A DNA stretch of 62,942 nucleotides, filler included, from Hausera hauseri (taxonomy: Eukaryota), in the NCBI GenBank assembly GCA_046269625.1. It is 13 parts of 13 records of this genome, joined end to end, with 100 filler letters (N's around TTAATTAATTAA, not from the genome) between each part and the next. Parts side by side here need not be neighbours in the genome. Positions count along the whole stretch, not along the records: positions 1 to 6,740 come from JBJURY010070550.1; 12 more parts are not named here. The stretch is one strand, 5' to 3'. The notes under the pieces are model-generated. The model worked only from the letters and a program-made list of their open reading frames with translations, searched no databases and was not told where the DNA came from. This document shows, piece after piece, positions 149-62,942 of this stretch. Each line of letters opens with the position of its first letter. Position 1 is the stretch's first letter. The position numbers and the translations under genes are program-made.

Positions 149-512
149 CAGTTTGTACCTCGCTAGACATTACTTTCGAGAGTCAATTAACGACATACAG
201 GCGAATAGCGCCATATACATCAAATAATTGTTGAATAATACGAATAAGAGTGTAAACTTGGGATCACAAGTTGTTAGAAGGGAATTAAGTAAAGATTAAT
301 CCTAGAGTAAACATTGAGAGGTTTAACTCGTGTCAAAACTTATTAGTAAACGGTAAAGAGAAACTTAAAGGGAAACACGGAATAAACTCTATATTAAAGA
401 CAAGGTAATAGACAAACATTGTTTATCCGACACTGAACTAATCAAGCAAGTAATTACCTCCGTTAAAGAATTCAAAGTTCCTCCTAGAATTCATAAAGTA
501 TATAAACCGAAG

Positions 513-1565
513 ATGGCAGCAGATAACCCAGCTATAGCACAGAAACTTGATATTTATACGTTCGATTCCCTGAACCTACCGGCATATGACGGTGACCCGG
601 ATGAGTTAAATGACTTTTTAAGAACTTATAAATTGCACGCAGAAGGTGCCAGTCTTGCGCCCGAAGTTATGATTAAACGACTGTCATTATACTTGAAACG
701 TCTGGCTGCAGAAGCCTATAGTGAACTTACCAATGACGAGAAGAAATCATGGTCCTCCGTAGTAGGAGCCCTGAACCGTAAACTGTTGCCGACGGTGACG
801 CCACAGCAAACGCTTATGGCTTTCCAAAACAAAACACAACAGAAGGATGAATCGGTCACCCAATTTGCAATCGCACTAAAGAAGCTTGCTAATAGTTACG
901 TGAGTACACTAAGGATAGCTAATGCGGTAAAGACTAATACAGATGCGGAACGCGAAGCGGCAGAAAAAGCTAGCCCGCCAGATTTAGATGTCACGATGAC
1001 AACTCAATTAACAAACGGTATATGGTCCAGAGACTTAGTTAAGCAACTAATTTTAGCTCGACCAGACAATTTTGAGACTGCATTACAGTTAGCTCAGAAC
1101 TTAGAAATGGCACTAGATAGATACGCTAGACAGGTTGATAGATATAATAGAAGTAATGACCGTGATAACCGGGATAGAAACCGAAACAATAGAAGATTCA
1201 ACAGTAATAATAAGAGTCGAGGCTGTGAAAATAGAGCCCAAGTGCCATTAATCGTAACACACGATATGATAATAGGAGCTTTAATGATAATAGGAGCACA
1301 TATAGTTCTTACAACAAAACAGTTTATATGCCGGATAGGAATCAAGGTAATGACCGAAGCAATAAGAATCGATATATAGTTAATCGAAGTTTCGAAAATA
1401 GAAATAACGGAATCGATAAACAAGCTCAACCAACTCAAAACAAAATAACAGGCAAACCCAAATCACCAGTGAATGAAGACGGACGACAAAGGATCGGCCG
1501 AGACGGGAATTTAATTTCTTATTAATGCGGTAAGGAAGGACATATAGCTAGATCGTGCCCTAATC
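513..1565 (+). pseudogene. gag: Ty3/Gypsy-type Gag (capsid plus degenerate CCHC knuckle), frameshifted
   Basis: Capsid motifs YDGDPDELNDFLRTY, LSLYLKRLAAEAY and QQKDESVTQFAIALKKLA. R/N-rich nucleocapsid region. After a frameshift near 1220-1330, SY*CGKEGHIARSCP (about 1517-1561) is a damaged CX2CX4HX4C knuckle. Confidence 0.85.
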
Positions 1566-4500
1566 CACGAAGCGTATTATTCTCAGAGACCAGTAAAACT
1601 AGCACAATAAAGGATAATTTGGAAGGAATCTATGGAAAACGAGGTGATAAAAACATGATTATCGAGATGCAGGACTTACAAAGATATATAAGAAATATGG
1701 GCGAATCTAATAATCCACCAGTAATCAAGGCCAGGAAGGCGTATGAAGAAAAGTTGCAGTTAATGGAAATTTATCATGGGTTAAGAGAACCAAAAACGGA
1801 GTGCAAAAATGCTATAGCACCCAGGAATACTAATATGCCCAGGAAGAGAAACCTAAATCAAGTCGCGGCAGAAGAAAAGCCGATAACGTCTTCAAGTGTA
1901 GACTTGGACGCGGATACCGAGGTCGCATCTCGAAATAAGGACAAAACAACAGATGAGGTTGAGAGCAAATTCATTGGCCCACTAATACTCAAAATAATCA
2001 AAAATAGAGGTAGAAGCCCTTCGCTTAGGAGAAGGTCACGAACTCGTTCACGATCTCCTATTAAAAAGGATTTAGAAAAGGAGGAAGACTTCATCATCAC
2101 TTTAAGAGATGAAACGGAGTTAAATACTCCTGTTGTAATCCAAGGCGTTTCTGAAACAGCAAATATTTCGAATACCGATGAAATTAATGAAATATATCCA
2201 CTACCACTTAGTGAAGAGAAATCAGAAGAAGAAAAGTCTATTAAGTTTGGGAAGATTAGAAAATCTTGGAAAAATACAAACGAACTAACTGAAATAAGAG
2301 ACACGCTGAATGATCCCGGAAGGTTACATGAGAGTCTGCAAAAACTCCAGCAGATGAGCAAACAGTTGGATATCTCCGGAAAAGAACAACAATTCATAGA
2401 AAAGCTATATAGAAAGCTTAAAACCTGCCTTCCGAAAGAGGAAGAAAACACACCTCGCGAACTCCAAGAGACGCCGCAAGACTTGATAGGAAGTTGGAAA
2501 AATAAATTGGAACTGTGGACAAGGAGTGGGATCGATTTTACGAAGATATGGTTGAACAAAAAAGAGCCGTTTCTCGATCAGGTAAATCAAGCGCAAGGAC
2601 TATTAAATGCACTAAAGGATAACCCAAAACTGAAACGCGTGAGGCGTAACTTAGAAGGATTGATACACGAGATCGAAGATGCGATCATTTCTTATCTTCA
2701 TAATAAGCCAGTATACAAACTGACAAATGCCGACCTAGAGATATTGGGCATAGACCCTATCAATATTCCCTCTTTGATAGCAATATGCAGTCTGATAAAG
2801 CCTAGTCCTCGATAATACCCGGATTTAAAAATACACATCGAAAGAGAAAACGAAATACGAGCTAAAATCAACGACATAAAGATCGGTGTAGTTCACCCTG
2901 AAAACGTAGAAGCACAGAGGATAATACGTGCTTGTCTTCTCAAATTATATGAGTATAAAGAAGAATTCAACCACATGAAGCATATCATAGAATTTGTACG
3001 ATGATCAGATCACGAACTAAAAGAAGTTCTTGGGACATTAGACGAAATAATCTACGCCAAACCGGCAATATCTAAACAATTAAAGAGGTGGATAGACTTG
3101 TTACCTTCCATAGCATAGATAATAAATGAAAGGCTAAGAGAATTCGCTATTGTCGAAACTATAACGAGACACCAATAGGAAGGAATGTTACTGGATATCG
3201 GTACGATGAAATACGAAACGAAATTGCGAATTAAATTCGAATCATTCCGAGAATTTGAACTTATGAGCAAGGATCAGGATCAAACAACACTAACAGAGAT
3301 ATATAGTATTATAGAAGAGAAGGAATTCTACAGAAAAAGAAACAAGCAAAGTGATCTTCGGCGAAGTTTGGCAAACATCCGTTGGGAAAGGATATAAAAC
3401 CTAATGCAGAAACCACTGAAAGAAATCTCAGCACAGGAAATAGAAACATTAGAAGTATGTAATGATCACCGGATTGCTCTGTCACAAACGATACAATATT
3501 TGCAGAATTCAGCAGAATGGACACCAGGTTTCGACCTACATTGCCACACCGAACTAAAGGAAATTAGAAAGAATCCTCAATTGGAGTGCGATGAAGCCAA
3601 GTTCATAGGCAGATTAATAGACACAATAGATCCGGACGCCGAAGTATTAAATCAAATGAACAAATTAATCCTACTATTAATACAAATGGCAGAAATTGAC
3701 GAAGTAGTAGCTGGACGACTAATAAATCGAATACGTCTGGTAAAAGAAACCCAGTTACGCTCCAAGAAGAGACAGCGCGAGCTAAACGAATTATTGAGAG
3801 AAGCAGAAGTTTATAAGAACAAGTATTCTTTTACGGAATCTGAAATTAATGACAAAATGGAATTTATGCAAAGATGGTAAAGAGACAGAATCGCGGAAGT
3901 AACTAGCTATCAAGAGAAAGCCTTGATACAACCAGACGAAATGTGCCGGTTAATAAAAATGATACAACAAGCTTGCGGAAATGGAGATGGATTTAGGATA
4001 TCCATAATGAATACATTGCAACCACAGATAAGAGAACTACGCGAAAGAGTCCAGGTTGGCCACGCGGCAGTAATGAACTACGCGTTACCGGACACGGATA
4101 ATGATGCCGAGTAGGATGAATACCTCCAAGGTTTAAACGAGCAAAGTCCAAGAAATCCAATACAAATTTATGAGTCAACTTAGGGTACACAGAAGACGAA
4201 ATTCAATGTGCAAATGCTACTTGGTCCCACGCTAGCTGAAAAGGAACTGAGTAGTGTACTGAAAATAAACAAGTGAAGATAGATTAAGAAATTTGATTCT
4301 GACCTTGACCAAGCTATCCAATGGAAACACCGCATACAGCGCTGTACCCAAGCTCCTAAAAAGAGAATACGCCAAATTGTTGAAAAACAAACCAGAAACA
4401 GAAATTAAAGTGAAACTATCATCCGAATGGATGAGCGACGAGGAATTTGAGTGCACTACCTATACCGCCGTTGGGGATATAAAACAGAGGATAATGGATA

Positions 4501-5300
4501 AGGATGGTAGGAAAGGAGTTAATTACCGACTCTATTTCAGGAGCAGGATATTAGATAAGCTAGAATCCTTGCCAGACGTAGGGATTATACCTCTCGAATA
4601 AAATCGAATAATAGCAATAATCGTCGGTGAGCAAACTAAGGACAAAGCCATGAGAAAGGCACATAAAGAGCATTGTGTCGGAAGAATCATGGGTATTCAT
4701 GATGCCGCAATGTATTTCGAATACTTACAGACTGATGATGACAAACCGCAGTAGGATAGGAACTTAGTCCCTCTAAGCGAAACTTCCCCACCGATCAAAG
4801 CAAAACGACTGGTCCGAAGACCAAGAAAAATCAAAGAAATTAACTATAATGCAGACCTAATTAGGGAATTGAGACAACTATCGGTACCAAACCCGAGTTC
4901 AGATAACAAAGAACTAATTGAGCTAATAAAAGACCTAATTAGGATAGTTAATTATACTGGATTCCAAGGAGACATATTATCCGAGAAAGAAAGATTAATA
5001 CATAATATAGCTCGGACAATGAAGATTTCTCGATTCAGATTATCTAAAAGCACCCTCTCTGACGAAACAGTAATTGATAGAATTATGATAGACAATACGA
5101 TGGAAGAATTAAGGACAGTCTTGATATATTCAGCAGTAAGAACTAACCCACTCCAGGAAAACGAATTCGACAAGATAATCGGGTTAGCTAAAAAAGCTGC
5201 AAGAAAGGTACCTAAAGAAATAAAGTGAACTAAATTATTCGAAAAAGACAAAATTACAAAAGGGGCCAATAGTTAGAGGACATAATACGAAATATTTCCC
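1566..5300 (+). pseudogene. Long uncharacterised continuation of the Gag frame (RS-rich patch, helical/coiled-coil), broken by isolated stops
   Basis: ORFs at 1619, 3185, 3404 and 3923 share the frame of the zinc knuckle and are separated only by single stop codons. ORFs at 4293 and 4869 share the next frame. RGRSPSLRRRSRTRSRSP lies near 2005-2060. No protease, RT, RNase H or integrase motifs were seen. Confidence 0.65.
4401..4630 (+). pseudogene. Ubiquitin-like (beta-grasp) domain within the retroelement polyprotein
   Basis: EIKVKL...TAVGDIKQRIMDKDGRKGVNYRLYFRSRILDKLESLPDVGI...*NRIIAIIVG aligns by eye to ubiquitin QIFVKT...[41 protein letters not shown]...STLHLVL. Confidence 0.65.
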
Positions 5301-5319
5301 CGAACAAAGGAAACGAATC

Positions 5320-6172
5320 CAATTGGTTAATCAACTTGCTGACGATAATGATGCTAGTAAAGCAGATAGGAGCACTCACTATATACGACTGCGAAAAATT
5401 CAAGGTGGGTCAGAAATATTCCTTGATGGACTTAGAAACATGTAAAGATGCGAGACCTCATAAGCTCGAGACAGCAGAAAAAATACTATATCAACAGCGT
5501 GAATTAATCGCAATGGATGCGATGGAGTGAATGGTGCGGAGATCCCGCAGAGTATTTCATTGTGGTAATATGCACGGTTATTCTTCAATAATCAAACTAA
5601 CCACATCATTAATCCCAATGAACTTGGATATACAACATTGTTTAGGAGCCCGGATAACCGGTAAAATGGTTTGGGTCGGCATGGGGTTAGAAACCCAAGA
5701 AGGAAGTGGCAGTAGGAAAATTAAATATGCACACCGGTTATTGTGTCGGAGAAGAATATGACACTGGAACGGGAAAGGAAGGATGGATAGTAGTAGTAAA
5801 TTTTTACGAAACCGAGTTAAGATCCCTAAAAGCAATGTTTTATAGTGTTACCAAAGTATTCACCAAAAATCAAAAATGTCACATTCAAGATGGTGCTTAT
5901 ACGTTCCGAAATTCAGTTGTTGTATGGAGCCCACCCTCAAGGCAAGACGTAATAGAACATCTCACACCAAAGATATTGATATTGGATACACATGGGTTAA
6001 AGTTTATTAGAAAGGATATGTTAATATGCTGCGATGTAGTTATGTATGATACCAACTACAAAGCGTTTTTCGTAGGAGAAACAGAAATTGACATGACAAC
6101 GTACTATTTGAATACACAAGATGTGCGGATCGAGGCTTACCTCAAAATTCGAGACGATTATTTTTATTACAA
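5320..6172 (+). pseudogene. env: Env-like glycoprotein of the chuvirus (Jingchuvirales) G type, N-terminal part, truncated by an insertion
   Basis: Hydrophobic signal WLINLLTIMMLVKQIGA followed by IYDC...YSLMDLETC...ME*MVRRSRRVFHCGNMHGYSS (TGA at a Cys position), then GYCVGEEY...WIVVV, KCHIQDG..VVW and CCDVVMYDTNYKAFFV. This Cys/motif pattern matches chuvirus-like glycoproteins. Contains a frameshift and a stop. Confidence 0.72.
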
Positions 6173-6740
6173 AGGAAAATGGCGGTACTGCCCCATTCTC
6201 GGGAGGGGGCGGTAATGGATAAATCTATTTAGCACATGTGCCGATAGATAGTGCACATTGTGCACTATTTATCCAAAAGTGCACTTTTCACAAATCGATC
6301 GCTGTACAGTGTACTATTGATCAAATCGATCTGCACTTTGTCCTAATCGATAGTGCACATGAGTGCACATAAATTAGTGCAAGTGCAAGTGTGAAAAAAT
6401 CAATAATATGGGATTTTCGAAAAATCAAAAATGGATAATTAGCACTGTGGACCAAGTGCAATCGGTAGGGCACTTGATATTGTATGTGAATGTGCAGTTA
6501 GAATTTAAATCGATTGATTGGTTTTCAAATAATTCTCAAGTGGGGCAGAACCGCCATAGGCCTTTCCGCTATAAATTTTAAATCAATGATATCAAAATGG
6601 CACATGTACAGACGTGTGCAGTAGACGATGCACTTTCAATCAGTGCACAATTCAAGTGTGCTGTGATTATCGATCGGTGTGCAGGTGCACTTTTCACTTT
6701 ACACACTTTTGCAATTGTGCAGCGTAGGATTGATGGAATT
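6173..6740 (+). mobile_element. Terminal region of the AGTAG-type repeat (copy A), probable Polinton TIR or non-autonomous derivative
   Basis: Colinear with 48312-48950; shared blocks include aagtgtgaaaaaatcaataatat, ccataggcctttccgctataaa and tgtgcagcgt.ga.ttgatggaat. Rich in GTGCAC and ATCGAT. Interrupts the env frame. Confidence 0.75.
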
Positions 6741-30249: not shown

Positions 30250-33206
30250 TCGAGCTTTACCATATACGGAGGATTTTATATCTGATATTGACGAAAAGCT
30301 CGAGGAGAAAATCTCCAACTACACGGAAACGGGTAGTGGATGGCGAACTGTAAAGATTGTCACTCTCGGAGTTCATTCGTACCGACAACTGCAGCTCTAA
30401 GCACTCAAAAACTGTAGTCAGTGTAGAAAATAATAGCGACTAATACTGTTTTTTTACAGTATTTTAGCCATATTAAAATATGACGAAGTGCCCAGAAATC
30501 GTGCATATCTTTCAAAAAAATATCGTCAGTATTTTTCCGAATTGGACTTTGATGAAAGCTGGATGCCGATGAAACTCAAAACCATTTCGGCTTTTGAACG
30601 GCGTAATCCGACACTGTCAGTCAACGTTTTTCGGTACAACTCAGTATTAGAGATACTGGCAGATGAGGAAATTTACAAAAATCCTGACGTGGATATAATC
30701 TATCGAAGTCGGAACCCTAATTGACGTCCAATATACTTGTTGCTGTTGGAACAGGCAGAAAAATTTTATTACGTGACATTATCAAATCTGGACAGACTAC
30801 TGAACATGGACCATGACCAATTTATCTAAAAACATACACTGCAAATAGTGCCCTATATGTTTTCATGGCTTCATATCAGAAGCGACATGAAAAAAACACG
30901 TGGCGCTATGCAAATGAAACGTATCGGGAACAACAATGTACGTCAAGGAGCTGAGATTTAGTGACTGGTCGAAAACGGATAGTCCTGCATATATGGTCTA
31001 TGCCAATATTGAAACAATTCTACCGCGGCACAACGTATACGACCAAAAGCACATTTCAATCGTCGTCGGTATGTGTCTAGTACCAATAGAAGCCATTGAA
31101 CAAGCGCAGTATTACATTTTTTACGGATGAAACTGTGTACATGATTTTCTGCACCGGTTGAAGGCAATAGTGAAAGCGGAAATCAAACCGTAGGATAGTA
31201 ACAACAGCACTAAGCCTTTGATCTGGACAGACGAAGACGAACACCTTACGTTTGCAGTCACAGATAAATGCTACCTGTGCCACAAAATATTACCATTTGA
31301 TGAACTGGAACAACTCGTGTCTGATCACGACCATTTTACCGGACGATACCTGGGAGCAGAATACAATTCATGCAATTTGACAAGGTGTGTGCGGCTATTC
31401 GTATCGGTGGTATTTCATAACTTTAGGGGTAATGATTGTCACCATGTTCTAAAATGGACCATTAATGGATTTCCACACTGGGAACTGTTTATAATCCCAA
31501 TAACGATGGAAAAATACCTGTCTCTGTCGGCAGGCATAAACCGGTTCCAGGTGCGAATCCTTGACTCATTACAGTTCCTCAATGAGTCTCTAGAAAAGCT
31601 GGTAAATGCCTTGCCGGGTATGCCGTTAACACCAACGCAGTTTCCGATGCATACTGCACGTAGCAAAGGCATATTCCCGTATGACTTTGCTGTATCGTAC
31701 GAGCGGCTTCAGACAACAGAGGAATTGCCGCCCCCGTGGCCCAGTATAACAGTAGATGAATATCGCACAGCACAGGATTATTGTTCAGCGCTCGGCTGCA
31801 GAAGCGTATTTGATTACATGCTCCAGTATCTGAAACTGGACGTGTACTTGCGGGCCGACGTGTTTCAGACATTTCGGACTAAGGTGTTGGCGGAAGATAG
31901 GCTGGAGCCGCTCAACTTTTACTCCATACTGAGAATGAGTTGGGTGTCGGCTTTGATATCATTGAAGCGGGACACTGAGCTGTTGCAAGACCCAGAAATA
32001 TACCGACTGTTTGATCGTGGTATTCGTGGCGGCATGACATTTGTCAACAATATTGTCTGGAGGCAATATTGGAAAATTTATCGAGAGCAGACACGACAGA
32101 AAACAGCTCATTCGGCTACTTGATGGAAGTTGATCTCGTGGTACCGGATAAGTTGCATGACGCTTTGGACCAATTGCCTGTCGCACCAATCAGTCAATAT
32201 CCGCTCGGCGGTTCAAAGGTGAAGAAACTCGTCATGACGCATGAACCGAAGTCGAATTACATGGTCCATTGGCGTCTGCTAAGTTCTACATACAGCTCTG
32301 AGTACACGTCACACAGCTGCATTGCGAAATCTAATTCAATCAGGCTCCGATAATAAAGGCATACATTGACGGAAATTCAGAAAAATGAGCCGAAAAGTTC
32401 AAAAAAGACTATTACAAGTTGAGAAATAATTATCTCTACGGCAAAACAGTAGAGAACCTAAAATGCGACTCAGTGTGCGTCTATGTAACTGGGAAAAGTG
32501 GCTGGTTGAGTTCACGAGTAAGGCGAAATTTCGGCGGTCAATGTACATTGCCAAAGGATTGGTTGCGGTGTTGTTAAAGAGAGAAGAAGTCGTACTGGAC
32601 CGGCCAAGTTACATCGGACAAGTGGTATTCGATTTGAGAAATTTGCGGATGTACGAGCTGCAGTATCGCGATTTCACACATTACCGGCAAATGTTCGATG
32701 GCTGTGATATAAGTATCGTTGCAAGTGACACAGACAGCTTTTTCCTTTAGCTGAGAAACGTCAATCGCGACCAACTGCTCCGGTAAATGATAGCAGATGG
32801 ATTACTGGATACGTCAAATTACCCACAGAATCATCCGCTGTATAGCAACGCCATAACAAACAAAATCGGCTGCTTCAAAGATGAAAGTGAAGGCCGTGTT
32901 CAGTACCGAGAATGGATATTCCTGCGTCTCCTGACGGACTGTGGACCGAAAGTGCGCGAAAAAGGCGTTCAGCTGTCCCAGACGGAAATAAACCATGGTG
33001 ATTATCGCCATACCTCTGAAGCAGCAGCAGCAGAAGAAGAAAATGGAGGACGACAAGGAGGACAATCAATGACTGTGTTTCAAGCGAACATACGATCGAT
33101 TGAGCACCAGTTGTATAGTATTACAAACACAAAAATCGATTTATCATGTAATGATGATAAGCGAAAATGGGTGGGGCGAAATAAGAGTTGGGCGTATGGG
33201 AATTAG
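30250..33206 (+). pseudogene. Polinton/adintovirus pPolB with endonuclease-VII-like insert, near full length and decayed
   Basis: ETGSGW, CYLC..DHDHFTGRYLGA..SCNL (endo VII-like), HNFRGND (ExoII), SKGIFPYD, YLKLDV (ExoIII), GIRGG, LYGKTVEN, SDTDSFF, DTSNYP and DDKRKW..SWAYG. Many frameshifts. Confidence 0.92.
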
Positions 33207-47520: not shown

Positions 47521-47629
47521 TATTTAGTTAGTTATTCCACATCACTTGAATGAAAACTCGAAACATCGAATCGAAACATTTAACATCTTTACAACATTTA
47601 CAACATGTGCAAAACAATAACAAATTACA

Positions 47630-48311
47630 TCATAAAAGTGAAATATGTCCATGGGGCAAGGTGGAAATGCCACCACCTAATATATGCCTTTTGTCGTCTA
47701 TTCAATCTAGACTTCTTTTGTGGATCTTGACTGTTTGATTCTCATGAGCCTAAAGTTGGATGCGATTCATCTCTGATATAACGTGACTATAACCCCTCAG
47801 AACTGTCACATGGTCTTCGCAGTTGATTTTTTTTGGCTAATGTAGCCCTTTGAACTCCTTTTGCGCGCTTTTTCACTTGGCCAATAACACGATTGCATAC
47901 ATTTTGGAGCTATGTGCCACGAATCGAAATATGATTTTCCCATCCATCTCATCTGTGAACTTCCCGAGGACCGTCTTATTTGTTACAGAATAATTTCTGT
48001 AATCTTTCGGATAGTGGGAAGTTTCCATACGCTTAACCAATTTTGCAAAGTCGACAAATATGTCATGAGTATGAATCTGATACATGAAGGAATCAGTGTC
48101 CATATATATTAGCTGTAACTCCTTGAATGTTGCGACCATGATAATATATTGAAAATCAAACATCAAGGTCTTCGATAGGTCTAATATCAATATGTTAACA
48201 TAAATTTGCTTACTGAACTCCAAATATGTTTTAAGCATATGAACAGTGACCAGATTTTTACGGTTTATTATGCACATATATGCCGTGGAAGTTCGACGTC
48301 GCTATGAGCTT
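47630..48311 (-). pseudogene. pPolB C-terminal fragment interrupted by the AGTAG repeat
   Basis: KLIATSNF, ILDLSKTLM, YMDTDSF, ETSHYP, LGKFTDE, SKMYA, KRAKGV and DDKRHIL..TLPHGH. Confidence 0.88.
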
Positions 48312-49260
48312 AGTAGGGGAAAAATGGGAAGTCTATCCCACTCTCCGGGGGGTGTGCGCGTCGATAAATCGATAGTGCACATGCGCTAATTGATAGTGCA
48401 CACTGTACACTATCGATCGGTAGTGTGCTAGATGACGGTGCCGCTAGGCACCGTTGCTATGCACATTTTTGGACATTTCACAAATCGATCGCTGCTCAGT
48501 GCAGTATTTATCGAATCGATCGACACAAAGTGATAATTGATAGAGCACATCAGTGAATATCGATTGGCACACAGTGCAGGTGTGCAGCACATGTACAAGT
48601 GTGAAAAAATCAATAATATCCGATTTCTGATAATTCCAGTATGGATGATTAGGGAACGGCACCGGGTGCAGTCGAAAGCACACATGATGCACTATGTCAA
48701 TGTACAGTTACAATTTAAACACACTGATTGGTTTTAGAATAATTGCCAACTGAGGCAGACTTCCCATAGGCCTTTCCGCTATAAAATGAAAATCAATAAT
48801 ATCAATATGGCACATACTGGCGGGTGCAGTACTTTATGTACTATCGTTCAGTGAAATACTCGAGTCAAGTGTGCTCTTGGATACGGTTGCTAAGGCACTT
48901 CTTCACTTTTCACATATTTGTCACTGTGCAGCGTGGAATTGATGGAATCGATTGGGGTCAAGTGCAGGTTCATAGAGCACATCAAAGTGCACTTTGATAT
49001 ATACTGTGCAGTGCAAAAACACGTGGAAGTGTGCAAAAATCAATAATATCGGATTTCCCATATTTCAAATATTGATGATTTGGACATGTTACCAAGTGCA
49101 TTCGAACACAAACATAGTTCAATATATGAATGTACAGATACAATTTAAATTAATCGATTATTTTTGGAATAATATCGATCCAAAGTGCAAATTTTGCAGA
49201 CTACCAATAGGTTTTTTAGGTCATAAGAAATCAAAATTCGCTATTATAATTACCCGGGCC
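48312..49260 (+). mobile_element. AGTAG-type repeat (copy B), probable Polinton terminus
   Basis: Begins AGTAGGGGAAAAAT and is colinear with 6173-6740 and 62829-62942. Internal tandem duplication of about 430 bp (48597-48775 vs 49028-49215). Confidence 0.75.
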
Positions 49261-50369
49261 AGATAGGACGTCGAATATGGCCATCTCGAATCTCAAGTCA
49301 GATATTCTAAATTTTAATATTTTCGAGCTCGAATATCGAAGTTCGAACTATTCGAAAAACCTAACAATGGAAATAGATTCCTCATATGCGGAAATCCCCT
49401 GATATATAAAAATTATTCCATGAAAATGGGCTACACATATACAAAATCAATATTTCAAATTAAGCAAAATGTGCATTTAAAGCTTAGCGAAATAAATGGA
49501 TAAATCTAATAGCCGGGCTGGATAAGAAGTCATATATGCCGAATAGGAATATGATGTTAGATATTTGAATTCGAGCTTCCAAGTCGAATATTTAGCTGTT
49601 CGAACTCGAAAACTCGGTCAAGCATGCATTATTCAAAGAATCTAATGACGTCATTCGATTCCCCATGGTCGAAAACCTTAAATTTGGCGCCGCCTTCTAT
49701 TTAATTTAATTTATGCATTAAAACAAAAGTGCATTAAAACCAATCAATAAGCAAGGCAGTACATTGTGATATGGCAATATTTTTCATTATTTCCAAAATC
49801 ACTTCAACGAATGGTGAGTTTTTTAATTTTGCTCCTCAAATAATTAGTTGATTTAAAGATGCAAACTTTACAGTGAATGTTTGGCTCAAATCCATAAGCC
49901 AAAAAATTGCCACAATGTTATGAAGAAGTACTTTGGTCATATATACAACAGGGTTCAGTATTATATATGCCCTACATGTGAGGTGGTGTGCCAAATCAAT
50001 TATGAAGACTTTTACAGTGTCCATGAACAGCACTTGATTTCCTTCAACAAGTCGAAAGAACAAATATTCAGTACCAATATGCCAATAACGACTTTAAAGG
50101 AAAATCGAAGGTGCAATTCATAAGTGTATTGCACATGTGTAACACACAACCCTTAGAATTGCTACAATGTCATGACGAGCTATTATGGACATAAATTCAA
50201 CAGGATCATTTATTATATCTGCCCAGGATGTGAGGCTGTATGTGATGGAGAATACATACAGTTTTATGANNNNNNNNNNNNNNNNNNNNNNNNNNNNNNN
50301 NNNNNNNNNNNNNTTAATTAATTAANNNNNNNNNNNNNNNNNNNNNNNNNNNNNNNNNNNNNNNNNNNN

Positions 50370-60101: not shown

Positions 60102-60983
60102 CTATTTGCAAAATATCTTGAACACATCCCTACGGTAGTTAAATGTCAGAAAGCAGATTATATTCCAGGTGAAAAAGGTTTCAGTGGACAAATTATCAAT
60201 GATACACTGCTTGCAATAATAGATTTCGTTTTTATCAATATTTTCACACTGTATATCACTTTTGTGATTGCCATAATGGGAACGATGATGTGTACATTGA
60301 CTAGAACATATTTCACAAACAGTAGTACATCTGTACCATGTCTTTGGTATGTCTAAACGCATGTTCTTGATATCTGTTTGACAGTTTATACACGCCTCAA
60401 TACATGAAAACATATCATTCAAAGAATGAGGATTTCCCCATTGAAACACCTCATTCAGTATCGATAAGATATCGTCTTTAGAATCAATCGCAATAGTTGG
60501 ATGATTATTGTTGTCGATCATAACGGAATTGTCGATGACGTTTGAATTGATAATCAAAACGTCATATTCGTATAACAACAGTTTTATGTGTGAATTTAAT
60601 TCCCGAGTTGTTTTGTATACTTTACTGCAATGTGTACATCGGTACAGATTCAAATTATCAGTATGCTGCATTCGGACATGCCTACTCAATGATGAAACCG
60701 AAATAAACTGCTGTTGGCATGCTATACAAACGAGATATCCATCGGTTCGCTTATCTCGACAACCGTTTTCATGGGTTTTCGAATGAGCCCAAAGAGACAA
60801 TTTCGCCGAAAATGCTCCATGGAAAACGTTAAAAATGAAATCTTTTTGAATTCTATGATCCACTCGAACGTGTTGAATCAATTCTTCAGAATTTTTCAAT
60901 TCTTTGTCGCAATTCGCGCAACCGTGATAGAAAAACGATTGTTGTGTGGATTTTTTATAACGACTAACGATCATCGCTTCATC
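60102..60983 (-). pseudogene. C2H2 zinc-finger protein with a Cys/His-rich C-terminal region
   Basis: CANC..HVRVDH, CIAC..HVRMQH and CTHC..H fingers, plus CEICSSQCTHH..H..H. Some fingers are damaged. Confidence 0.6.
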
Positions 60984-61448
60984 TGCTGGTTTTAAAAAGT
61001 GAAGCGTAATTTATAGTTTTCATTTGTTGATCAGTTAGGTTTTTGATGTAAAATCCACATTTGCTTTTTCGGATATTCACATTTCTCAAAGTTACTTTTG
61101 TCCATCTTTTCAACATATGGATATTGTTGGCTCATTAAATGGATCATCATCATCATTATCGTCAAACAAAATCACTGTTTCTTCCTGTTTGTTTACTTCT
61201 AAAATATATGTGTAATTATATTAAAAATTGGAAATTAAACAAACTTTTTGGTGTTGAAGCTATAGTTGGACAATCCACAAAACCGTATTGTGGAATTGGA
61301 TGCTGTTGTTGATACCCATAGTGTCCAAACATACTAGACTGGTATGACGGGAAATGCGAATAAGACATTTTAAGAAATGAAATGTTCTGAGGAAACATCA
61401 GTATTTATACTTTTTCATTCGAAAATCAACCAATCAGAATGCTCTGAG

Positions 61449-61887
61449 TCATATTGAAAGTAAAATGTATAATGAAATTGTATCAAGTATATGCTCATAG
61501 TCTAATGACTTTATTCCGGGATTAACAATTTTTCCTGTATGAAAAACATTAACATAGCGGATTGAATTCAGTTAGGCGTAATGCTGGAAATAATTCTGGT
61601 TCATATGAACATAGGACTTTTTGTGCCAAGTCATTCAGATTGATATTTTCATTCAGATTCATACATATAGTTAGAGACTGAAGTTTTTTTATTTTGATAT
61701 TTAGCGGTAAATCAGATTTCTCAATGGGTTTCTTACAACCCATAATACGACAACTGCCGCTTGGGAACATGACGATGTTGTAATCAGCATAATTAAGAAT
61801 ACACTGTCTTGGTTTCCATTCATTAAAATGGAGATATTGGACATTTTTTGCATCGTTATGCGCCTTATAATTAATATTAACTAACAT
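61449..61887 (-). pseudogene. Miniature TATA-binding-protein-like gene (copy 1), about 145 codons, frameshift near the 3' end
   Basis: VNINYK (TBP IQNIVST), MFPSGSCRIMGCK (IFSSGKMVCTGAK), INLNDLA (IRLEGL), SYEPELFPAL (SYEPELFPGL) and, after the frameshift, VNVFHTGKIV (IFVSGKVV). Confidence 0.78.
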
Positions 61888-61911
61888 TTTTAAAATGTCA
61901 CACTCATACCT

Positions 61912-61942
61912 CTATTTATATTTATTTTCAACAAATCAGAAT
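61912..61942 (-). promoter_or_regulatory. TATA box plus CCAAT-like element upstream of the TBP-like gene
   Basis: Minus-strand TATAAATAG about 25 nt before the ATG. TCAACAAATCAGAAT (61928-61942) nearly matches TCAACCAATCAGAAT (61426-61440), which lies upstream of the next ORF's TATA box. Confidence 0.5.
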
Positions 61943-62069
61943 ATAAACAAATTAATATATAAACAAAGTAATTCAGTTGAAAAGAAATAAAATGGATCAC
62001 TGCATTCGAGTTGATACTAATGAAAACGGTAAGGTTCCATATTGAATATTGAATATTGAATATTGATTT

Positions 62070-62790
62070 CCAATCCTGGGGGTCCGACATAGGATATTTA
62101 TATTGGCCCAGTGTGCTCACATCCCCTACTCAGATTACCCAAAATTTTATGCTAAATTTACCTGGCTCGATAGGCATATATTGTAAAAAGCTGCACCGAC
62201 ATTTTGTTAAAAACAATTGTTCATCTATGGTTACAAAACCGTGAGGAAAATAACATTTTTGACAATTGTTTATATCCTGCTCCCACACATCTCGAATAGC
62301 GTAAAACTTGTTACCCTGTTTTTTCTTGCATATGAAAATTTATTATCGAATCGCCAATATTGCTCAATGCACTGAAATATAGTTCAACTCATGGTATCAG
62401 TAAATATTGGTCTTCCATACTTCTTGACCCAAAATTTTACAAGTGGTTCATTTTTACCCTTCCGGACGCCCCTTTAAAGCGACAAACCAAAATAAGCTTT
62501 AAGTTCATCAACTGTCAGGCTGAAACGTTCATTATTTTGAACTATAGATACTGCTACAGTAAACTTAACGATACTGAAGAGGTTCTTATAATCAAATAAC
62601 GCAAGAAATACGTCTTCAACATCCTTCACTCTTGCCAGAATAAAACGTATGGGATCACCGTTTTCCGGAACCATATTGTGCACTGGAACTCTTCCAACAC
62701 AATTGCGGATTGACGGGTGCTTTGACCATTCATTTCCATATTTCCGTCTATAAATCATGAGATTATGAAATGGATTTGGAATTCATATTC
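62070..62790 (-). pseudogene. piggyBac (PGBD4-like) transposase, N-terminal half, decayed
   Basis: DELKAYFGL..GVRKGKNE..W..YGRPIF..TMS, RFDNK and FYAIRDVWE..NCQKCY..VTIDEQL..CRCSFLQYMP.EPGKFSIKFW. Confidence 0.85.
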
Positions 62791-62828: not shown

Positions 62829-62942
62829 AGTAGGGGAAAAATACCGCTTCTGGCTCAACCCCCCCGGGGGGGGGTTGGATCGATAAATCGATTTGCACAT
62901 GTGCCGATCGATAGAGCACCCGGAACACTATCGATCCATAAA
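62829..62942 (+). mobile_element. AGTAG-type repeat (copy C), start only
   Basis: AGTAGGGGAAAAAT..., a GC palindrome AACCCCCCCGGGGGGGGTT, then tcgataaatcgatttgcacatgtgccgat as in copies A and B. Confidence 0.72.

Follow-up and report, generated by a model that had tools for sequence, protein, structure and literature searches.

Introduction

Polinton replication is known solely from a sequence-based model, which in its standing form combines a single-stranded DNA (ssDNA) racket intermediate with protein priming (PMC4196379). The racket is closed by an inverted repeat, and in the accessible portions of this literature the known stem consists of two TIRs of 100-1500 bp paired end to end (PMC4196379, PMC10748475, PMC8502044). 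A related panhandle is described for the ITRs of adenovirus and PRD1, which replicate by protein-primed strand displacement and for which fold-back has been proposed to serve re-initiation and the restoration of homology. There the loop is genome-length and lies between the two ITRs; the accessible part of that account gives no natural co-variation and states that direct evidence of fold-back end structures is lacking in protein-primed viruses (PMC11886824). In the 'Rabbit Ears' form of Streptomyces, a terminal segment of a protein-primed end pairs with an internal palindrome, enclosing several hairpins in a few hundred nucleotides of ssDNA, with end repair on a fold-back. The available text of that study concludes that the Rabbit Ears form is not the one serving repair; it concerns the patching of bacterial ends by Tap/Tpg, the sequence involved is conserved, and the system offers an analogy only (PMC5449611). 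Hairpin-forming ends with a proposed replication role are also described for integrated Polisuviricotina-type elements, the virophages and PLVs of Halocafeteria. These are 52-nt palindromes, mainly in elements other than those with pPolB, for which hairpin priming is proposed, and the accessible text contains neither a distant partner nor a co-variation analysis (10.64898/2026.07.28.741278).

The element described here resembles Polintons/Mavericks (adintovirus-like) in its pPolB with an endonuclease VII domain, its double jelly-roll capsid-like and adenain-like genes and its tandem-repeat terminus. Unlike the stem formed by Polinton TIRs, the complementary pair that we report lies inside one end, is 17 nt long and hypervariable, and co-varies; in contrast to the genome-length loop of the adenovirus and PRD1 panhandle, the predicted fold is local, spanning 30-450 nt. 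We found no description of an intra-end co-varying stem in Polintons in the mainly non-subscription literature accessible to us, which includes the available parts of PMC6431247, 10.1101/2025.02.07.637071 and PMC11296320.

The motif copies mark the polymerase-side end of a Polinton

The window, by which we mean the whole stretch of 62,942 nt that was analysed, consists of short contigs joined via 100-nt N linkers and taken from the 869-Mb assembly (909,086 contigs) of the eukaryote Hausera hauseri (GCA_046269625.1). Since the contigs are separate, the three copies of the motif in the window, A, B and C, are three independent insertions. The pairing of a 17-nt terminal arm (X) with an inverted partner (X') that the sequence-only reading had described for copies A and B was recovered at the positions and match counts listed in Table 1, and copy C does carry a third variant of X.

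Table 1. Features of copies A, B and C, in window coordinates; match counts are complementary positions between X and X'.
Feature	Position	Strand	Remark
Copy A, terminal arm X	6179..6195	+	AGTAG terminus lost
Copy A, C/G-rich hairpin immediately 3' of X	6196..6212	+	
Copy A, inverted partner X' (6541-6557, 16/17) and conserved AGGCCTTTCC tail	6541..6567	+	
Broken pPolB 3' part of a related Polinton copy	47600..48311	-	motifs of the family's pPolB end, by eye
Copy B, element terminus AGTAG-N4-AAA	48312..48323	+	outward of here, flanks vary between copies
Copy B, terminal arm X	48324..48340	+	
Copy B, C/G-run hairpin	48341..48352	+	hypervariable between copies
Copy B, local hairpin, one among several within the X:X' loop	48435..48454	+	
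Copy B, proximal partner X' (48751-48767, 14/17) and AGGCCTTTCC tail	48751..48777	+	
Copy B, second, more distal partner paralogue	49192..49208	+	10/17 to X
Copy B, start of coding region with Cys/His repeats, then contig end	49850..50269	+	
Copy C, terminus (62829), X (62841-62857) and C/G run (to about 62874)	62829..62942	+	contig ends before partner

The end has the layout AGTAG-N4-AAAAT-X. Homology between copies begins sharply at AGTAG, 12 nt ahead of the motif, and X starts 13 nt from this terminus on the pPolB side. The terminus itself is a short tandem repeat, AGTAG, often AGTAGTAG. Polinton termini follow a 5'-AG rule. Short tandem-repeat termini are likewise a feature of Polintons in the accessible text of PMC4196379. 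About 1.5 kb inward lies a reading frame that encodes Cys/His repeats together with endonuclease VII and protein-primed PolB (pPolB); the Cys/His-repeat frame that begins in copy B continues into the latter two domains in sister copies, with PF03175 (E 6e-10) and PF02945 (E 3e-6) matched downstream of the end, and every copy inspected is broken. One contig (L480) holds pPolB, an adenain-like protease and a double jelly-roll capsid-like fragment together. The protease (L480:482-847) has Atlas values of 0.96 and 0.93 to PF00770 clusters, with no direct Pfam match; for the capsid-like fragment, clusters in which 16% of members have PF21738 give an Atlas value of 0.96 and PF04451 gives 0.94, a recognition value under the Atlas strong level, and the fragment is without a Pfam match. 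From the pPolB, capsid-like and adenain-like genes of their sisters, copies A-C are the polymerase-side end of a high-copy Polinton/Maverick.

All ends of this first type that are long enough and untruncated run into the same pPolB arm (at least 10 copies), and they therefore represent a single end and not the two arms that a long TIR would have. The assembly yielded no long TIR and no contig with two facing ends, and a long TIR seems unlikely for this family; Polinton searches that demand long TIRs would miss it or place its boundaries wrongly. The flanks of 226 ends display a symmetric N-W-Y-R-W-N bias across six bases, and cross-matching of flanks for a 6-bp TSD gave nine six-base matches against five in the control (one against two in the young families). 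The two main end types (see below) could not be linked to each other, the cross-match of their flank 6-mers being at control level, and gene-by-gene extension from both did not meet in the stretches examined.

Other element classes were considered and rejected. Helitron2/Helentron elements, with their subterminal inverted repeats and hairpin, are marked by a Rep/Helicase gene and a TT target; the end leads to pPolB and not to Rep/Hel, and the junction base is T in just 73 of 226 ends. DIRS/Ngaro elements, which have an internal complementary region, are marked by a reverse transcriptase and a tyrosine recombinase, neither of which occurs in the coding region after the end. LTR and ribozyme readings were ruled out by gene content and Rfam.

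Copy A, whose contig ends at 6740, adjoins the ORF of a decayed gag-bearing retroelement at the point where AGTAG would stand; that neighbour (369-6215) comprises a decayed gag/zinc-knuckle retroelement followed by long A-rich ORFs with no recognisable pol, and copy A lies at its end. Copy B is inserted, in the opposite orientation, into the broken pPolB of a related Polinton. Copy C belongs to a young subfamily with 273 motif matches, and its insertion is adjoined by a TBP-like gene (PF00352) and a C2H2 zinc-finger ORF (60102-62782, minus strand). A further pPolB/endonuclease VII fragment (PF03175, E 8e-8) lies on a separate contig of the window, at 31194-32123.

First-look candidates number 8597 for the copy B end, fall to 2923 and 3164 around pPolB and to 822 and 505 further in; by these counts, polymerase-side pieces are far commoner than capsid-side pieces. 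In four contigs (L300, L304, L311 and L464) a TG-rich tandem array and a RING-finger gene follow pPolB, in place of a gene that in other copies we take, by motif, to be DEDD/mael-like and that has no database match.

The terminal arm co-varies with its partner position by position

Ends were collected from the assembly with patterns that fixed only the conserved flanks and required both arms on one contig, which returned 431 + 100 ends with none for the reversed-pattern controls. The analysis covers 201 of these 531 ends: a first set of 144 (119 found by pattern and 25 by similarity) and a held-out set of 57, the full pattern being missing in three of 60 held-out regions. A register filter removed 29 of the 144 first-set rows and 18 of the 57 held-out rows, leaving 154 filtered copies, and column co-variation was scored with average-product correction.

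Complementarity between X and X' averages 12.66 of 17 positions over the pooled 201 copies, compared with 10.96 when partners are permuted (permutation maximum 11.45). The first set gave 12.99 against 11.11 (z 14) and the held-out set 11.82 against 10.58 (0/20000 permutations). Among 142 variable columns in the 201 copies, the Watson-Crick partner ranks first at seven of the 10 testable X positions, second at two and fourth at one; after register filtering (154 copies) it is top of 147 columns at nine of 10. The held-out set taken alone (39 filtered copies) has the true partner first among 17 partner columns at just two of nine positions, and thus repeats the overall excess and not the column-level pattern. 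At eight variable positions the match rate is 0.69, where chance would give 0.49 and decay would limit it to 0.82; 13 cores of five bases are seen two or more times in both arms. The X:X' pairs rank 19-313 among all 11430 column pairs, the top 18 being lineage markers within the loop. The same column-pair scan revealed no clear compensatory pairs in other stems of the loop, and no co-variation was evident between the four head bases and the tail. Position-specific co-variation at these Polinton ends is real.

This co-variation is superimposed on a conserved core, AT...TTC..G.CYCA, that is common to all end types. The variable 7-nt code of the sequence-only reading is indeed variable, but the variability extends over about 10 positions (4-8 and 11-15) that flank the conserved TTC rather than forming one block; similarly, its compensatory change with the partner holds as co-variation and falls far short of strict matching. 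As many as 40 of the 154 filtered copies (26%) have 11 matches or fewer, compared with 4% expected from decay, and several of these are clean swaps of two common variants. Either insertion does not strictly require the stem, or the mismatched contigs include short-read chimeras; a test for a recombinant signature found no higher mosaicism in mismatched than in matched copies (p 0.86) and so gave the swap model no direct support.

Much of the complementarity excess is common within lineages, although an end's own partner fits better than that of its nearest relative (12.99 vs 12.39, p 0.003). Spearman correlations with the DNA between the arms are 0.08-0.13 for X and 0.05-0.23 for the partner, while the two arms correlate with each other at 0.37; a partial Mantel comparison of X with X', correcting for the intervening sequence, gives r 0.36 with a permutation maximum of 0.144. 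X tracks the ancestry of the inter-arm DNA only weakly and is therefore not a subfamily code, and the suggestion of a subfamily-specific recognition code finds no support: ends that are 92-98% identical to the C-type interior over 133 nt bear many different X types, and a third copy of the motif within the family does not co-vary. Across 276 close pairs the proportion of differences is 0.12 in the loop, 0.30 in X and 0.27 in the partner, the arms changing about 2.5 times faster than the DNA between them, and changes confined to X outnumber those confined to the partner among close relatives (1926 vs 1428).

Two-unit ends and other end types provide natural controls

Many ends carry a 430-nt unit twice and so possess a second, distal partner-like copy. 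In 32 such two-unit ends X matches the proximal copy (12.16 vs 10.56 permuted), and the distal paralogue does not co-vary with X (10.22 vs 10.10 permuted). In 29 one-unit ends (31 matches; one of 30 rows left out) it is the distal-type copy, now the nearest at about 450 nt, that co-varies with X (12.93 vs 10.58 permuted; 0/20000).

A second end type, with 218 matches, shares its first 25 nt with the first type and is not alignable beyond; inward of it there is mostly a TBP-like gene and, in one case, a divergent pPolB start. It has its own partner about 300 nt in, with complementarity of 15.37 against 14.70 permuted in 30 copies. Among the 67 variant positions of 20 second-type ends preselected for a variant X, the partner had changed along with X at 40, retained the common base at 23 and differed in another way at four. 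The X of copy C is identical at 15 of 17 positions to a variant of this second type. Inward of the second type, at L383 and L498, stands a TBP-like gene similar to the neighbour of copy C, followed by a dUTPase.

The third end type is rarer and forms a compact hairpin with a loop of just 11-30 nt and compensatory pairs; of the three end types it is the one nearest to the palindromes of Halocafeteria virophages and PLVs in the accessible account (10.64898/2026.07.28.741278). At its position 15, 14 of 16 in-register copies match by eye, as A-T (8), C-G (5) or T-A (1). Eight of the 24 rows were mis-registered and left out, and the permutation value over all 24 (135/20000) was therefore set aside. 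Across the three types the stem persists with unrelated interiors and with loops that measure about 400 nt, about 270 nt and 11-30 nt, respectively. The earlier proposal that pairing at long range, or templated copying, takes place at the element end is supported by these data: the signal is position-specific, survives correction for loop sequence and recurs in two other end types.

The third type stands ahead of an internal first-type terminus in eight of 304 ends. In such stacked termini (L370:637-1400, L691, L695, L699 and L700) a compact-hairpin module of about 450 nt occupies a fixed point before the polymerase-side terminus, sometimes followed by a deleted copy of itself. A further repeat family (L704-L716) has the inner compact-end module in common and different upstream sequence. 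Two AGTAG-like ends (L143 and L139) have no partner within the DNA present at those loci.

The assembly does not contain the predicted partner of copy C

The 56 C-type loci examined are without exception termini whose contigs break no more than 215 nt past the motif. The partner predicted for copy C is absent from the assembly with its AGGCC flank at up to two mismatches, and has no exact match there with a bare AGG flank; contigs from four public runs, aligned to the C end, stop short of it. No RNA run was listed among the public runs that contain this end, which include runs of related species; this is uninformative about expression. In the closest relatives of copy C the partner context is AGG(G/T)TTTT rather than AGGCC. 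The young C-type interior is probably collapsed in the assembly, and for this reason we treat the absence as a blank rather than as a refutation.

Predicted folding and a candidate fold-back of each end

When copies A and B are folded in silico as ssDNA, the whole end is closed by X:X' in both the minimum-energy and the centroid structure, with z scores of -6.75 and -6.43, to both of which internal palindromes contribute. Among 60 random ends the stem was predicted in 17 of 18 with at least 15 matches, 22 of 26 with 12-14 and none of 16 with 11 or fewer; these rates follow from the match counts and are not independent evidence. Neither wobble pairs nor folding displayed a strand preference, both strands being alike. 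The earlier reading had left open ssDNA or RNA pairing; the former is favored, and for the latter no Rfam match reached gathering level, the one weak match in window positions 48200-49700 having E 0.4 and 21.4 bits against the 45.5 needed.

On balance, we think it somewhat more likely than not that each end of this Polinton folds back on itself as ssDNA, with X:X' as a selected closing stem. We place the structure in single-stranded DNA because the stem is kept across interiors and loop sizes while its sequence is free and its pairing matched; pairing, rather than sequence, would be what is maintained. Excision, or strand displacement during copying by the protein-primed polymerase, would leave a strand single-stranded, and the stem would then close a fold-back at each end. 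It may keep the terminal AGTAG next to a duplex, ready for priming or for processing by the integrase, and, because the end types have only about 30 nt in common, it could replace the end-to-end TIR panhandle. The idea of a replication-origin panhandle fits once the element is recognised as a Polinton end. Change would start in the terminal arm, through mutation or through exchange of the end module (30 nt) at the hypervariable C/G run. Selection, together with correction inside the fold-back, would later re-match the inner arm; this order is suggested by the excess of X-only over partner-only changes and by the likeness of copy C's X to a second-type variant. A lagging re-match would leave the minority of mismatched copies that is observed. 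A broader scenario, which we put forward tentatively, is that this Polinton lineage gave up long TIRs and that each end rebuilds its own origin through an internal mirror copy, the terminal 30-nt module passing between ends and between lineages at the hypervariable C/G run and the inner arm being rewritten to fit. The hundreds of natural matched and mismatched ends constitute comparative evidence for fold-back at the level of the base pair, with the exact 17 bp named; if the fold-back is real, these ends are a natural co-variation record of an ssDNA replication intermediate that has never been observed.

The alternative that survives best, although we consider it rather unlikely, is that the stem is an unselected, functionless by-product: the inverted arms would sometimes anneal on single-stranded intermediates, and one would be copied onto the other. 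Such copying is consistent with the faster evolution of the arms than of the loop, with the quarter of inserted copies that are unable to pair, and with rare X alleles that are common to their own partner 14 times compared with 5.5 when permuted. Most of these 14 alleles, however, characterise small lineages and not individual copies, and of 140 rare alleles 126 do not recur in the partner. The stem also persists across three end types whose interiors are unrelated and whose loops vary in size by more than 10-fold.

It is improbable that X and X' are instead inverted binding sites for an element-encoded protein, such as the integrase or terminal protein, with a specificity that differs by subfamily. 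The fixed core in all end types and the third copy in two-unit ends would suit paired protein sites; against them, co-variation does not extend to that third copy, X does not track lineage, the spacing varies from about 30 to 450 nt and single positions co-vary independently.

Shared ancestry alone, in which an old inverted duplication and subfamily structure mimic co-variation, would account for the roughly two thirds of the excess that is also seen against the partners of nearest relatives (12.39 vs 11.11, of 12.99) and for the held-out set being without the column-level pattern. It cannot make new alleles complementary on both arms, and with the diagonal of best partners, the partial Mantel result and the distal-paralogue control also against it, this very improbable reading is already largely refuted. 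Least probable of all is an RNA structure in a transcript starting at or upstream of the terminus: the region does precede the pPolB reading frame, in the same orientation, but X begins 13 nt from the terminus, the same stem is present at ends leading to the TBP-like gene, top-strand G-T wobble is not enriched and no Rfam family was matched.

Two further features of these termini were observed. The C-run/G-run that follows X (window 62858-62874; L091-L120 and L312-L337) occurs in 38 forms among 52 near-identical young copies with the same X; it is a possible hotspot of slippage or exchange, and homopolymer sequencing error may add to its variety. At L128:1400-1520, the terminus and 27 nt of the end module are joined, inverted, to sequence about 1 kb inside the left arm, in a junction that looks like a fold-back or deletion product.
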